Assembly (NCBI GenBank): GCA_963717145.1 | Contig: OY970325.1 | Coordinates: forward strand, 2,784,001 to 2,848,000 | Reading direction: 5' to 3' | DNA: 64,000 nucleotides | DNA from: an uncultured Armatimonadetes bacterium | GTDB taxonomy: Bacteria; Armatimonadota; UBA5829; DTJY01 | Shown: in pieces, positions 45,012-50,595 of the stretch | How the letters are laid out: every line of letters starts with the position of its first letter | Numbering within the stretch: the first letter of the stretch is position 1 | The notes under the pieces: generated by a model | The model's database searches: none | Told to the model about the DNA's origin: nothing | The model's input: only the letters and a program-made list of their open reading frames with translations | Translations under genes and position numbers: made by a program

Positions 45012-45040
45012 TTGACTCGCTGAAGATAAGGGTCTAGAAT
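45012..45040 (+). promoter_or_regulatory. Sigma70-type promoter of the hsdM operon
   Basis: TTGACT (45012-45017), 17 nt, TAGAAT (45035-45040). Confidence 0.75.
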
Positions 45041-45105
45041 GACTCGGGACACTCTCGGATGGGCATGTGCCTAGCCTATCTGGTCACCTAGAAGGATGGA
45101 ACGCT

Positions 45106-46569
45106 ATGGGCGACACCACCCACGACATCGTTGCCAAGCTCTGGAACTTGTGCAATGTCCTCAAGGATGATGGCATCACCTACCACCAGTACGTCATCGA
45201 ACTGACCTATCTACTGTTTCTGAAGATGGCGAAGGAAACGAGCCATGAGCGTCAGCTTCCGGTAGGCTATCGGTGGGACAGTCTCAAGGCCAAGCCTGCA
45301 TCCGAAAGACTGGAGTTCTACAAACACCTGCTTATCCACCTGGGCGGCCATAGTTCCTATCTGGTTAGGCAGATCTTCGCCGATGCTCATTCCTTCATCA
45401 AGAAGCCAGTCGCACTGTCCGTCTTGGTGACCGAGATCGACAAGCTCGATTGGTACTCTGCCCGTCGCGAAGACTTGGGCGATGTATATGAGGGGTTGCT
45501 GCAGAAGAACGCGAGCGAGAAGAAATCGGGTGCCGGGCAGTACTTCACTCCGCGGGCACTCATCGACAGCATGGTCGCGGTGATGAAACCGACAGTGGAT
45601 GACATCATTCAGGACCCGGCAGCCGGAACCGGTGGTTTTCTCATCGCCGCGAATCGTTACCTTCGCCAGCACGGAGACCCTAACCATTGGACGGAGCATC
45701 AGCAACGGAAGTATCGCCGCAGTACGTTTTACGGTATGGAACACGTCCAAGACACTCATCGGCTTGCACTGATGAACCTTATGTTGCACGGCATTGATTA
45801 CCATCAGAGGGCTGGAGGCATCCGATATGGCGACACCCTCGGGCCCGAGGGTAAGGCGCTACCGAAAGCTACGCTAATCCTTAGCAATCCGCCATTCGGC
45901 AGCAAGAAGGGCGGTGGCCTGCCCGCCCGTACTGATTTCGCTTTTCGAACAAGCAACAAGCAGTTCTGCTTTCTGCAGCATATCTACCGCGCGTTGAAGC
46001 CTGGTGGCCGCGCCGCAGTGGTCATGCCCGACAACATGTTGTTTGAGGTGAATACCGTAGGGGCAGCCATCCGCCGTGACCTGATGGACAGATGCAATCT
46101 CCACACCATCCTCCGGCTGCCTACTGGCATCTTCTATGCCCAGGGCGTGAAGACAAATGTGTTGTTCTTCACTCGTGGCGAGACGGATCAAGGTAACACC
46201 AAGGCGGTCTGGGTCTACGACCTACGCACAAACATGCCGCAGTTCGGCATGCGTTCGGTGCTCACCCGCGAGCGTTTTTCCGATTTCGAAATGGCGTTTG
46301 GCGACGATCCCCTTGGCGGCGCGCGCAGCCTGGCCACACGGCAAGATAGCGGCCAACAAGGCCGCTTCCGCAAGTTCACCCGTGACCAGATCGCTGATCA
46401 TGACGACAACTTGGACCTCTCCTGGTTGAAGGACGAAGGGAATGAGGGCAGTGAGGCAGACCCCATCACCGTGGCACGGGAAGCCATGGGCGAGTTAGAA
46501 GCAGCCTTAGAGGAGGTTCGCGGGATTCTTCTAGAGCTGGACGAGGGGATTGCTGAGGTGGAAGCTTGA
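45106..46569 (+). CDS. hsdM: Type I R-M N6-adenine methyltransferase subunit (EcoKI-like)
   Basis: IVAKLWNLC..L.DDG, GAGQYFTPR, DPAAGTGGFL (SAM binding), NPPF (catalytic), LRLPTGIFYAQGVKTNVLFF. Confidence 0.95.
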   Translation: MGDTTHDIVAKLWNLCNVLKDDGITYHQYVIELTYLLFLKMAKETSHERQLPVGYRWDSLKAKPASERLEFYKHLLIHLGGHSSYLVRQIFADAHSFIKKPVALSVLVTEIDKLDWYSARREDLGDVYEGLLQKNASEKKSGAGQYFTPRALIDSMVAVMKPTVDDIIQDPAAGTGGFLIAANRYLRQHGDPNHWTEHQQRKYRRSTFYGMEHVQDTHRLALMNLMLHGIDYHQRAGGIRYGDTLGPEGKALPKATLILSNPPFGSKKGGGLPARTDFAFRTSNKQFCFLQHIYRALKPGGRAAVVMPDNMLFEVNTVGAAIRRDLMDRCNLHTILRLPTGIFYAQGVKTNVLFFTRGETDQGNTKAVWVYDLRTNMPQFGMRSVLTRERFSDFEMAFGDDPLGGARSLATRQDSGQQGRFRKFTRDQIADHDDNLDLSWLKDEGNEGSEADPITVAREAMGELEAALEEVRGILLELDEGIAEVEA

Positions 46570-48221: not shown

Positions 48222-49780
48222 TGAGGCTAGATCGGCTTCACATCGCAGCATATGGGAACTTGCGCGATTTCGAGATCGACTTCGATGAGGGCCAACCGAC
48301 CACCGTTTTGATCGGACGCAACGGCTCGGGCAAATCATACCTGATCGAGGCAATCGTCGAGATATTCCGCGATCTGGAACTGGATCGCGCTCCCTGCTTT
48401 GCCTACACTCTGGACTACGTCTGTCGGGAGCGTAAGATCAGGATTGACGCCGATCCAAGCAGATCCACGAAGCGTCTTGAAATCACGGTGGACGGGAAGG
48501 CGCTAACACGGACAGCCTTCCGACGTGATCTCGACCGCCTGCTTCCCAACTATGTGTTCGCCTATTACTCCGGCTGGAGTGAGCGCCTTCAGCGCCAGTT
48601 CGACAAGCCGACACAGAAGTACTATAATGACGTGCTGTATAGCCTTCGAACTGACATGCCCTTACGCCGCCTGTTCTTCTGCCGCAAGGAGTACAGCCAA
48701 CTAGTACTGCTAGCCTTCTTCCTGGCCGAACCCGAGAACACCCGATACTTGCTCGAGAAGTACCTTAACATCAAGGGCTTCGACTCGGCCCTGTTTGTGC
48801 TGAAGACTCCCTGGTGGCGAGGCAGTGGCAGACCCAACAAGAAGCAGCTTGCCGATGGTGACGAGCGCTTCTGGTATGCAAGTGGCACGTTCAAAGGGTT
48901 TCTTAGCCGGATTTGGGATCAAGCGCTGGCTCCCATACGTAATACTGAAGTTGACGACCATGATATCCGAAGACAGGGTGATCGGATTGAGAGGCTATAT
49001 CTGTTCATCAAGAACCAAGCTGAGCTTAGCGGGCTTAAGGATGCCGACCAAGATGCCAAGACCCTCTTCAGCCATCTGGAAAGCCTGTTTCTCTGTGACT
49101 TAATAGACGAGGTACGCGTTACTGTTGTGCGCACGGATGACACCCCAGTCAAGTTCACTCAGCTAAGCGAAGGTGAGCAACAGCTTCTGACGGTCCTCGG
49201 TCTCTTGCTGTTTACGCAGGATGACGAGTCACTATACCTGCTCGATGAACCTGACACGCACCTCAATCCGCTCTGGACATACGAGTATTTGAGTTTGCTG
49301 CAAGACAATATCCGAGCCGAGAAGGTACAGCTATTGATCACAACTCACAATCCATTGATGATCGGCACCCTGCACAGGAATCAGGTGCGCAACTTGAGAC
49401 AGGAAGGCAGATCCATCCTTGCAGAGGAGCCAGAAGACAATCCGATCGGTATCGGAATCGAGGGACTGCTCAAATCCGAGTTGTATGGACTGAGATCGAC
49501 GCTGGCTCCAGAAATACTGAGGGATATCGACACACAGAATGAGCTCTTGGCGCTACCCAGGCGGAATGCCGCTCAGAAGAAGGAACTAGAGAACGCAAGC
49601 GAACGACTGGACAAACTTGGCGTCACCAGAAGTCATCCCAATCCGCTCTTCGATCTCTTTGCCAAGGCGATCGCTGGCGAGCCGTTGTTCCAAAAGCCGG
49701 TTCTAACGAAGGACGAGATCAAGGAGCAGGAGAAGCTGGGAAATGAGATGATTGAGAAGATCATGAGGGAGAGCGAATGA
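48221..49780 (+). CDS. ABC/AAA-type ATPase (AAA_15/AAA_21, PtuA/OLD-like)
   Basis: Walker A GRNGSGKS, signature LSEGEQQ, Walker B YLLDEPD, HLNP, H-loop ITTHNP. Confidence 0.9.
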   Translation: MRLDRLHIAAYGNLRDFEIDFDEGQPTTVLIGRNGSGKSYLIEAIVEIFRDLELDRAPCFAYTLDYVCRERKIRIDADPSRSTKRLEITVDGKALTRTAFRRDLDRLLPNYVFAYYSGWSERLQRQFDKPTQKYYNDVLYSLRTDMPLRRLFFCRKEYSQLVLLAFFLAEPENTRYLLEKYLNIKGFDSALFVLKTPWWRGSGRPNKKQLADGDERFWYASGTFKGFLSRIWDQALAPIRNTEVDDHDIRRQGDRIERLYLFIKNQAELSGLKDADQDAKTLFSHLESLFLCDLIDEVRVTVVRTDDTPVKFTQLSEGEQQLLTVLGLLLFTQDDESLYLLDEPDTHLNPLWTYEYLSLLQDNIRAEKVQLLITTHNPLMIGTLHRNQVRNLRQEGRSILAEEPEDNPIGIGIEGLLKSELYGLRSTLAPEILRDIDTQNELLALPRRNAAQKKELENASERLDKLGVTRSHPNPLFDLFAKAIAGEPLFQKPVLTKDEIKEQEKLGNEMIEKIMRESE

Positions 49781-50595
49781 GGCATATTCCGCTACTCGAC
49801 CACACTCCCCCGGCGGGTTGGCTAAAGAGGGCGGCCAAGGCATCAGCTGAGATAGAGGCTGAGACGGACCCGGCGGCTCGAAATCGACTGATCAGGAAAA
49901 AGGCTAAGGTGTGGGGGGCACTCAAGGACTGGCTGCTTGAGAGATCAGATCAGAAATGCTGGTTCTCAGAGGCGAAGGACGGCTTTCAGGATTGGGATGT
50001 CGAGCATTTTCGGCCCAAGTTGAGCGCAATGAACTTGGATGGAAAAGAGCGGGAAGGCTACTGGTGGCTAAGCTGTGATTGGCGAAACCTGCGCATCTGC
50101 GGCCGGGTTGGCAATAACAAGAAGAGGACGATTTTCCCGCTTGGCTCTGACTATGCAGCAGATAGCCATAATCGAGACGTTGACGAAGAGGTGCCATATC
50201 TTCTGGATCCAATCAATGGCACAGATTGCGCCCTCTTATCCTTCAACCAGCTTGGCGAGGCAGTTCCTGGGCCCGGCTTGGATGAATGGAGTAAGCTTCG
50301 GGTCAGGACGTCCGTCCAGTGTTACAAGCTTGACTACGATAAGCTTGAGCTGCAAAGAAGAACCTTATGGGAAACATGTGTCGCCCTACGGAATGAGATT
50401 CAGAATCTCATGCTTGAGCAATCTAAGCGCCCAGGTGCAGCCAAGAAGGCGCGGATAGAAGAGAAGATGAAGCAACTCGCAGCTCTGACTTATCGTTCTA
50501 GCCCCTTTTCAGGTACGGCGATTGCCTGCCTGCAGAAGAGCGAGATTGGCTGGGCAGTGCGTCTATCCGCTGAGTCGCACCAGCCTATGCCGTGA
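49777..50595 (+). CDS. HNH endonuclease (PtuB-like)
   Basis: KCWFSE, DVEHFRPK, GYWWL..DWRNL..C...N..K...FPL, LLDP. Confidence 0.85.
   Translation: MRHIPLLDHTPPAGWLKRAAKASAEIEAETDPAARNRLIRKKAKVWGALKDWLLERSDQKCWFSEAKDGFQDWDVEHFRPKLSAMNLDGKEREGYWWLSCDWRNLRICGRVGNNKKRTIFPLGSDYAADSHNRDVDEEVPYLLDPINGTDCALLSFNQLGEAVPGPGLDEWSKLRVRTSVQCYKLDYDKLELQRRTLWETCVALRNEIQNLMLEQSKRPGAAKKARIEEKMKQLAALTYRSSPFSGTAIACLQKSEIGWAVRLSAESHQPMP

Follow-up and report, generated by a model that had tools for sequence, protein, structure and literature searches.

The stretch of DNA analyzed here (the window) comprises 64,000 nucleotides (nt), positions 2,784,001-2,848,000 of the single-contig 5.37-Mb genome of an uncultured Armatimonadetes bacterium, and all coordinates below are window positions unless a locus is named. 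It carries an operon of four genes, hsdM-hsdS-ptuA-ptuB, in which the methyltransferase and specificity subunits of a type I restriction-modification (RM) system are followed by the ABC ATPase and the HNH nuclease of a Septu-type defense system. Comparison with related loci indicates that this is an HsdR-less form of a five-gene operon, hsdR-hsdM-hsdS-ptuA-ptuB. The methyltransferase and specificity (M/S) part and PtuAB form one operon and probably one physical complex. By analogy with better-known systems, and with a confidence that we place at about even, we suggest that the methyltransferase core of such composite operons (M2S, two HsdM and one HsdS) may hold or regulate PtuAB without needing HsdR.

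Linkage of the type I methyltransferase core to PtuAB

Open reading frame (ORF) calling places four plus-strand ORFs within 45067-50595 (Table 1). HsdM matches the PADLOC model MTase_I PDLC03026 (1.5e-197, 655.6 bits), and its DPAAGTGGF and NPPF motifs are intact. HsdS matches PDLC03127 (3.6e-136, 453 bits, HsdS residues 2-536, profile positions 7-551 of 571), and both this match and the conservation profile reveal the two target-recognition domains and the conserved helices of a type I specificity subunit. PtuA matches PtuA1 PDLC00293 over residues 1-518 (1.3e-169, 563.6 bits) and the Pfam families PF13304 and PF13175 (ABC/AAA_15-AAA_21 ATPase), with its Walker A, Walker B and H-loop residues (G32, N34, G37, K38, S39, D342, E343 and H376, window numbering) at invariant PtuA columns. 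PtuB matches PtuB1 PDLC00333 (3.5e-73, 244.5 bits), with H77, N104 and N113 at invariant family columns. Pfam agrees for HsdM, HsdS and PtuA and gives no match for PtuB, and the nearest NCBIfam model of PtuA, TIGR04435 'restriction system-associated AAA family ATPase', falls below its cut-off (140.5 vs 300). All four genes are full length, and every family-invariant residue is kept. PADLOC logic would call the locus Septu type I beside a type I system without a restriction subunit. At least 6,902 of 8,000 scored candidates are PtuA homologs at E<=1e-20.

Adjacent genes overlap throughout: the stop codon of hsdM and the ATG of hsdS share TGATG (46567-46571), as do those of hsdS and ptuA (48219-48223), and ptuA and ptuB overlap by the 4 nt ATGA (49777-49780). 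The hsdM ORF is open from GTG 45067, and translation is likely to start at ATG 45106, upstream of which stands AAGGATGG. GC content (guanine plus cytosine) is 0.525-0.585 over the four genes vs 0.59-0.64 in both flanks, and a PtuA ortholog was found in 0 of 60 relatives of the genome. Because of these two results the module is regarded as a horizontally acquired low-GC insert, at which we found no tRNA, integrase or flanking direct repeats that would delimit it. A preliminary description, made from the letters of the window alone, had already recorded the three overlaps, the lower GC content, the intact motifs and an ATPase-HNH pair of the PtuAB kind, and our searches agree with it on each. 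Its near-consensus promoter fared less well; the site exists upstream of hsdM (Table 1), but promoter-like sites are not enriched in the region (3 found vs 3.4 expected from shuffles), and only its placement argues for it.

The coupling of the M/S genes to the ATPase-HNH pair, which was the central proposal of that description, is supported because hsdS and ptuA are strictly linked, because PtuAB-linked HsdS carries a specific tail with predicted docking on PtuA, and because natural HsdS-PtuA fusions exist. To begin with linkage, PtuA relatives of 37-75% identity were surveyed in 2 species genomes, in the best 80 of 496 confirmed metagenome matches and in 5 plasmids, and the loci were mapped by tblastn with references drawn from the same loci. 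Eight of the 82 loci plus the window start at or within ~180 nt of ptuA, and 75 are informative for the upstream gene; L043/L044 and L028/L029 are duplicates, so that these counts are not fully independent. An HsdS-like ORF stands upstream of ptuA in 75 of the 75 informative loci and in all 5 plasmids, and it abuts ptuA in all except L030 (1.7-kb gap) and L086 (344 nt). Not one copy of the window PtuA clade without hsdS was found (0/75). Rather than forming a self-contained two-gene system, as Septu is defined, ptuA and ptuB of this clade are always preceded by hsdS. Distances between loci also suggest a shared history: those of PtuA track HsdM (Spearman rho 0.72, 41 loci) and HsdR (rho 0.81, 27 loci) at least as well as PtuB (rho 0.55, 61 loci; 0.78 within the window clade), and therefore the module appears to be inherited as a unit, although the pairs are not independent and the correlations are descriptive only.

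PtuAB-linked HsdS proteins end in a variable basic linker and a conserved terminal block of ~55 residues, in which the conservation profile marks tail residues L69, L73, L84, W85, F95, Y96, L99 and E102. Among proteins in which an AFRGELV-like motif was found, the tail that follows it measures 104-130 amino acids (aa) in 28 PtuAB-linked HsdS and 0-65 aa in 10 of 11 PtuAB-less controls, which come from other members of the phylum and from the two further type I loci of this genome. The exceptional control, L148, has a 99-aa tail and is followed by a distant PtuA-like ATPase. An HsdS hidden Markov model (HMM) separates the two groups likewise, since the profile match extends to positions 529-556 of 572 in all five independent linked HsdS from plasmids and goes no further than 516 in any of 19 controls. 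When the C-terminal 122 aa of HsdS were searched against plasmids by tblastn, only the generic conserved helix (query 1-52) was matched, and the five PtuA-bearing plasmids were missed. The tail is predicted to fold into three helices and a hairpin, with a predicted local distance difference test (pLDDT) score of 81-90 over residues 61-110 and a mean of 72. Its top Foldseek matches are all winged-helix domains (MarR family, Z-alpha), which superpose at a root-mean-square deviation of ~2 A over 60 columns; the best E-value is 4.1e-3, and none reaches E<=0.001.

For the docking prediction, PtuA, PtuB and the 125-residue HsdS tail were folded together, with the tail as the scored partner. The complex prediction score was 0.66 (runs 0.66, 0.67 and 0.66) vs 0.00 for the best control, and this mark is reached by 116 of 157 solved complexes and by 2 of 215 mismatched pairs, rates that hold roughly for the present case. 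The runs share at least 41% of contacts, and the pLDDT of the partner is at least 59. The confident contacts lie between PtuA residues 189-299 and residues 81-122 of the tail, which belong to the winged helix. Several of the contacted PtuA residues, including S189, L191, W232, P238 and R299, are invariant or nearly invariant in the clade, and the tail side is conserved as well; the insert region of PtuA that they belong to does not align to solved PtuA. The prediction supports binding of the HsdS tail to PtuA.

Fusion proteins offer a natural counterpart to this predicted contact. There are 154 proteins of 910-2595 aa that match PtuA at E<=1e-30, and among the matches listed 120 of 120 long homologs are HsdS-PtuA fusions, recognized both by Pfam (Methylase_S and ATPase domains) and by the HsdS profile together with PtuA. 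In the 20 fusions that were inspected, HsdS is N-terminal and PtuA starts ~35-40 residues later. A strict coordinate test was passed by 87 of the 120; in the failures that we inspected, extra HsdS-profile stretches run into the PtuA part. Cyanobacteria and proteobacteria with annotated genomes are among the sources of these fusions.

Two side observations concern the tail. The ATPase that follows the long-tailed control HsdS (L148:4227-7341) shares 31% identity with PtuA at 76 bits, which hints that other ATPase families are tethered likewise. In addition, HsdS tails at L062:1542-1916 and L065:2554-2928 contain two tandem copies of the winged helix.

hsdR in the window, the genome and related loci

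ORF annotation revealed no HsdR-like ORF in the window, tblastn with 14 HsdR references of four kinds gave no match at E<=1e-3 in the 64 kb, and a six-frame blastp of both flanks against all collected HsdR returned nothing below E=0.65 and hence no remnant. The genome has exactly two hsdR genes, each part of a complete type I locus from another family: locus A is ordered hsdM, hsdS, OLD/GajA-like ATPase, hsdR (PDLC03040), and locus B is ordered hsdR (PDLC03049), 345-aa gene, hsdM, hsdS. In relatives of the window locus the partner HsdR is of a third family, PDLC03042, whose proteins match this genome at locus B only, with 26-28% identity. As a general rule, type I subunits complement only within close families. 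Because of this rule and the family membership of the two hsdR genes, the 5.37-Mb genome appears to hold no cognate hsdR, which was either lost here or never acquired. The absence of hsdR and of its remnants on either side, as the preliminary description had it, therefore extends to the whole genome, in which that description had proposed to look for a cognate gene. An ordinary type I system with hsdR just outside the window is rejected by the same whole-genome searches. Use of the HsdR of locus B in trans was also considered and judged unlikely; the HsdM of that locus is only 37% identical to the window HsdM over 259 aa, and its HsdR belongs to another PADLOC family. Both resident loci carry additional genes: a 569-aa OLD/GajA-like ABC ATPase is embedded between hsdS and hsdR of locus A (L012:9114-10823; ~2.014-2.016 Mb), and in locus B (L013) the 345-aa gene lies at 8289-9326 between hsdR and hsdM, with a PADLOC candidate PDC-S02 gene at 14331-15347 downstream of hsdS.

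Most related loci are complete. Leaving aside 41 loci too short to judge, hsdR is present beside hsdM in 34 of 47 informative loci and missing from 13, the window counted. The 34 comprise the 2 species genomes, 31 metagenome loci and 1 plasmid, with hsdR directly upstream of hsdM and a full operon order of hsdR-hsdM-(extra gene)-hsdS-ptuA-ptuB; both near relatives from species genomes have the canonical five-gene form. In the window's own clade, hsdR occurs in 13 of 15 informative loci, the two without it being the window and L027. These counts contradict the earlier view of the HsdR-free form as the design of the system, for which frequent hsdR among close homologs had been named in advance as the outcome that would speak against it.

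Loci without hsdR are nevertheless varied. In four metagenome loci, the sequence available upstream of hsdM spans 1.4 kb or more and contains no intact hsdR. A MiaB-like gene occupies this place in L027, and the stretch around L091 also encodes AbiV and ArdC-like proteins. The other two, L063 and L073, lie among integrase and conjugation genes and retain frameshifted or truncated C-terminal remnants of hsdR that are 79-95% identical to relatives. Plasmids L108 and L109 carry hsdM-hsdS-ptuA-ptuB, and an HsdR-sized ResIII protein is absent from the whole of each plasmid. A different order, hsdS-ptuA-ptuB-hsdM, is found in six loci (L058, L077, L081, L092 and plasmids L106 and L107), of which 0 of 6 have hsdR, two complete plasmids included; the four metagenome members have only 0-750 nt of upstream flank. 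On a quick PtuA tree, these six loci form one group (support 85), while five independent changes are required for the five HsdR-less rows with hsdM first, which is no improvement on shuffled labels (mean 4.8). The HsdR-less copies are scattered and mostly tips of the tree, and L063 is sister to an hsdR-bearing locus with branch lengths of 0.028 and 0.017.

Taken together, the sequence comparisons indicate that the HsdR-free state is a recurrent minority derivative and not the design of the family. PtuAB is best described as supplementing type I systems and not as replacing HsdR, because the copies without HsdR lie scattered over the PtuA tree and hsdR remnants persist in two of them. Function without HsdR stays plausible, because such copies recur with the four genes intact and because the six-locus clade shows no hsdR.

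Within the phylum, an HsdM homolog at E<=1e-60 was found in 21 of 400 other genomes. The best of these (L138), 73% identical, belongs to an hsdM-hsdS pair without ptuAB, and its HsdS is short and fits PDLC03169 best, not PDLC03127; one small contig in the phylum set carries ptuB-hsdM. Some operons show further insertions. In PtuAB-linked operons, an extra gene between hsdM and hsdS encodes PDC-S14 in L015 (7493-8419) and a YhcG/DUF1016 PD-(D/E)XK protein in L027 (4094-5383) and L057 (6976-8034). Three loci of the same phylum (L150, L155 and L156) are arranged hsdR-hsdS-X-hsdM, with an insert X of 1.4-1.7 kb at the place where the hsdS-ptuA-ptuB-hsdM clade has ptuAB.

Possible control of PtuAB by the methyltransferase core

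We speculate that a Septu-type effector, composed of an oligomer of the PtuA ABC ATPase and the PtuB HNH nuclease, may be attached to the type I methyltransferase core by the winged-helix module that ends the flexible basic C-terminal tail of HsdS and that would dock on the insert region of PtuA. M2S would methylate the recognition site of the host while holding PtuAB latent. Disturbance of M2S during infection, by a DNA-mimic anti-restriction protein or possibly by engagement with unmodified DNA, would then unleash the nuclease, in a manner similar to EcoprrI with PrrC and to reverse transcriptase (RT)-multicopy single-stranded DNA (msDNA) with PtuAB in type I-A retrons. Mimics of the Ocr/ArdA type target the M2S core, and HsdR would therefore be dispensable for a guard role, which in turn would account for the intact state of the remaining four genes in hsdR-less copies. 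We favor this explanation, at the roughly even confidence given above, because PrrC and retron PtuAB work by release and because it accounts for loss of hsdR with the remaining genes preserved.

Several observations weigh against a guard that works without HsdR. Most relatives keep hsdR, so that HsdR may be required for full function and the window copy could be defective; most of the HsdR-less tips are recent, and at two of them hsdR is visibly in decay. Stand-alone Septu, as far as it has been described, works without a partner. The role of the winged helix could also be a different one, namely DNA binding or regulation. The evidence for the tail has its own weaknesses, as a tail-only HMM detected just one of five positive plasmid HsdS and the regular expression behind the tail lengths either gave no match or matched at the wrong site in 22 of 50 linked HsdS and in 7 of 18 controls. 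Finally, the docking prediction used our own alignments and three chains, a set-up that differs from the calibration of the tool.

A more far-reaching version of the guard treats Septu tethered to HsdS as an immune module of its own kind, one that is self-sufficient and has M2S, and not HsdR, as its working partner. M2S would serve as bait for anti-restriction proteins or as a methylation reader, the HsdS winged-helix leash would switch PtuA-PtuB on, and HsdR would be optional. The four-gene form of the window and the hsdS-ptuA-ptuB-hsdM clade would then be minimal versions, and the whole would be a protein-tethered counterpart of PrrC and retron-Septu. This proposal is tentative, and we are more inclined to doubt it than to accept it.

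The main rival to the guard is a restriction arm, in which M2S at an unmethylated site would activate the HNH nuclease of tethered PtuAB to cut foreign DNA, with the host protected by M2S methylation and with PtuAB as the sole restriction subunit wherever hsdR is missing. It corresponds to the suggestion of the preliminary description that the ATPase-HNH effector takes the place of HsdR. The HsdS tail, the predicted docking and the fusions apply equally to it. It also fits the intact hsdM and hsdS of every HsdR-less copy inspected and the lack of hsdR in 6 of 6 hsdS-ptuA-ptuB-hsdM loci, two complete plasmids among them, and DNA cleavage, including that of phage DNA by Septu PtuAB, has been reported for stand-alone Septu. 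On the other hand, it would put two nucleases on one sensor in the 34 of 47 informative loci with a complete hsdR, whereas PrrC and retron PtuAB are released by loss of their partner and not directed by it, and retron-Eco7 PtuAB has been reported to degrade tRNA-Tyr, not DNA (PMC11555353). Overall, we consider direct restriction by PtuAB rather unlikely, if still well worth keeping in mind.

Two further explanations dispense with a working partnership, and they fit the data less well. The genes could be mere neighbours, an orphan M/S methyltransferase left by hsdR loss beside an autonomous Septu, with nothing in common but a transcript and a mobile history. Orphan hsdMS genes occur frequently. 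Defense genes are also often embedded in type I loci, and Septu is described as generally a stand-alone two-gene system with a small share embedded in other systems. This explanation, however, leaves unaccounted for the HsdS tail that is peculiar to PtuAB-linked proteins, the predicted contact of this tail with conserved residues of PtuA, the fusions and the total lack, among 75 loci, of a clade copy without hsdS, and we hold it to be improbable. Alternatively, the locus could be a remnant on its way out, its genes no longer under selection after the loss of hsdR. The truncated hsdR of L063 and L073 beside mobile-element genes and the position of HsdR-less copies mostly at tree tips would agree with such decay, but the four window genes are full length, with family-invariant residues and start/stop overlaps kept, and the complete absence of an hsdR remnant means that the loss was not recent or that hsdR was never in situ. 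We regard decay as highly improbable.

Control of PtuAB by the M2S core, if correct, would matter beyond this locus. Phage DNA-mimic anti-restriction proteins are directed most often against type I enzymes. To our knowledge, PrrC is the only well-studied back-up effector wired to type I enzymes, and a second, far more widespread effector family now appears to be physically leashed to HsdS. This would provide a simple model for how a methyltransferase core controls an ABC-ATPase nuclease, and it would explain the persistence of intact hsdMS pairs without hsdR. It would also mean that annotation pipelines are wrong in calling such loci an incomplete RM system plus a separate Septu.

Locus features and comparison with known systems

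Table 1. Features of the hsdM-hsdS-ptuA-ptuB operon, in window positions
Feature	Position	Strand	Remarks
Promoter-like site TTGACT-17 nt-TAGAAT	45012..45040	+	5' of hsdM; 10/12 positions match
hsdM, type I N6-adenine methyltransferase subunit	45106..46569	+	487 aa from ATG 45106; PDLC03026, PF02384
hsdS, long tail-bearing specificity subunit	46569..48221 (ORF 46566/46569)	+	Two target-recognition domains and C-terminal extension; PDLC03127
HsdS C-terminal winged-helix module on basic linker	48021..48218	+	Predicted PtuA docking piece
Predicted contact residues 81-122 of the HsdS tail	48084-48209	+	Complex prediction
ptuA, Septu-type ABC ATPase, 519 aa	48221..49780	+	PDLC00293
Predicted HsdS-tail contact in PtuA insert region, residues 189-299	48785-49117	+	Complex prediction
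ptuB, Septu-type HNH nuclease, 272 aa	49777..50595	+	PDLC00333; invariant H77, N104, N113

The flanks of the operon encode glycoside hydrolases, sulfatases, an SPFH protein and a HepT-like RNase. A recognizable defense island was rejected, since the flanking ORFs have no PHROGs or PADLOC match. A look-up of RNA and DNA sequencing runs listed none covering the locus. Directly after ptuB stands a tandem-repeat array with a 42-nt period and 4 copies (50800-51005), and a second array with a 24-nt period and at least 6 overlapping copies occupies 51212-51403. They are followed by a 222-aa ORF (51623-52291, plus strand) with a promoter-like site at 51499-51527 and a strong terminator at 52321-52346, for which no Pfam, PHROGs or PADLOC match was found. 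Between this ORF and the SPFH gene lies a cluster of near-perfect palindromes (52357-52740) with arms of 49 nt (52357-52458), 44 nt (52465-52605) and 29 nt (52644-52740). The interval 52828-55551 encodes a 650-aa SPFH/Band 7 protein and then a 251-aa ORF, the C-terminal half of which is a HepT-like RNase; its N-terminal half could be a partner nucleotidyltransferase or the product of a wrongly called start.

The locus resembles several known systems (for background on Septu, retrons and type I systems, see PMC8565338, PMC12255303, PMC12065111 and 10.1101/2024.10.26.620412). With Septu type I (PDB 8EE4/8EE7/8EEA) it shares full-length PADLOC PtuA1 and PtuB1 matches, an ATPase gene that overlaps the HNH gene after it by 4 nt, and the ATPase motifs together with the HNH residues. 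However, only the N-terminal 45 residues and residues 336-487 of the window PtuA align to solved PtuA (E 7.5e-12), the insert region with the predicted HsdS contact has no counterpart in that alignment, and the clade, always found after hsdS, is never stand-alone. MADS (MAD2 methylase, MAD3 ATPase, MAD5 S subunit) likewise combines a methylase, an S-like subunit and an ATPase without a classical HsdR, and shows weak cross-hits, but these lie far below the cut-offs (MAD2 92.4 vs 720, MAD5 32.7 vs 400, MAD3 29.9 vs 420) and the other MADS genes are absent.

Defense cassettes embedded in type I RM, BREX, DISARM and Hma loci have been described under the name of 'guilt by embedding' (Payne et al., 10.1101/2024.01.29.577857), with PrrC as the extreme case of embedding in type I loci. 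The window operon fits this pattern of an extra cassette placed within a type I operon or at its end, and cassettes of an ABC ATPase plus a nuclease are discussed in that work. There, however, the cassettes are treated as independent passengers, and its accessible text makes no mention of an HsdS tail, of fusions between HsdS and PtuA or of forms that lack HsdR. A full-text literature search returned no paper on HsdS-tethered Septu, such fusions or HsdR-less forms, although the supplementary tables of 10.1101/2024.01.29.577857 may list the cassette.

Closer parallels to the proposed control are found in retrons and in EcoprrI. In type I-A retrons, or Septu type II (RT-msDNA, PtuA and PtuB), PtuAB is described as the effector of an RT-msDNA sensor, that is, the same kind of effector coupled to an upstream sensor of the same operon, and solved retron PtuA chains are the next-best PDB matches to the window PtuA. 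The window locus differs in having no reverse transcriptase or msr/msd; its upstream genes are hsdM and hsdS, and M2S is the candidate sensor. No RT domain is among the Pfam matches of the operon and its flanks, and the NCBIfam models for retron PtuA (57.8 bits vs a cut-off of 500) and retron PtuB (28.7 vs 150) are not reached. As for PrrC-EcoprrI, the likeness is that of an ABC-ATPase-based nuclease in a type I operon, where PrrC, as described and proposed for that system, is kept inactive by the hsdMSR proteins. PrrC is a single polypeptide with its own anticodon-nuclease domain and lies between hsdS and hsdR. The window PtuA stops at residue 519 and carries no nuclease domain, and the 25 best PADLOC hits do not include a model for PrrC. 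In the window operon, the nuclease is a separate HNH protein, the ATPase-nuclease pair stands after hsdS, and the proposed link to the type I core is the winged-helix tail of HsdS.

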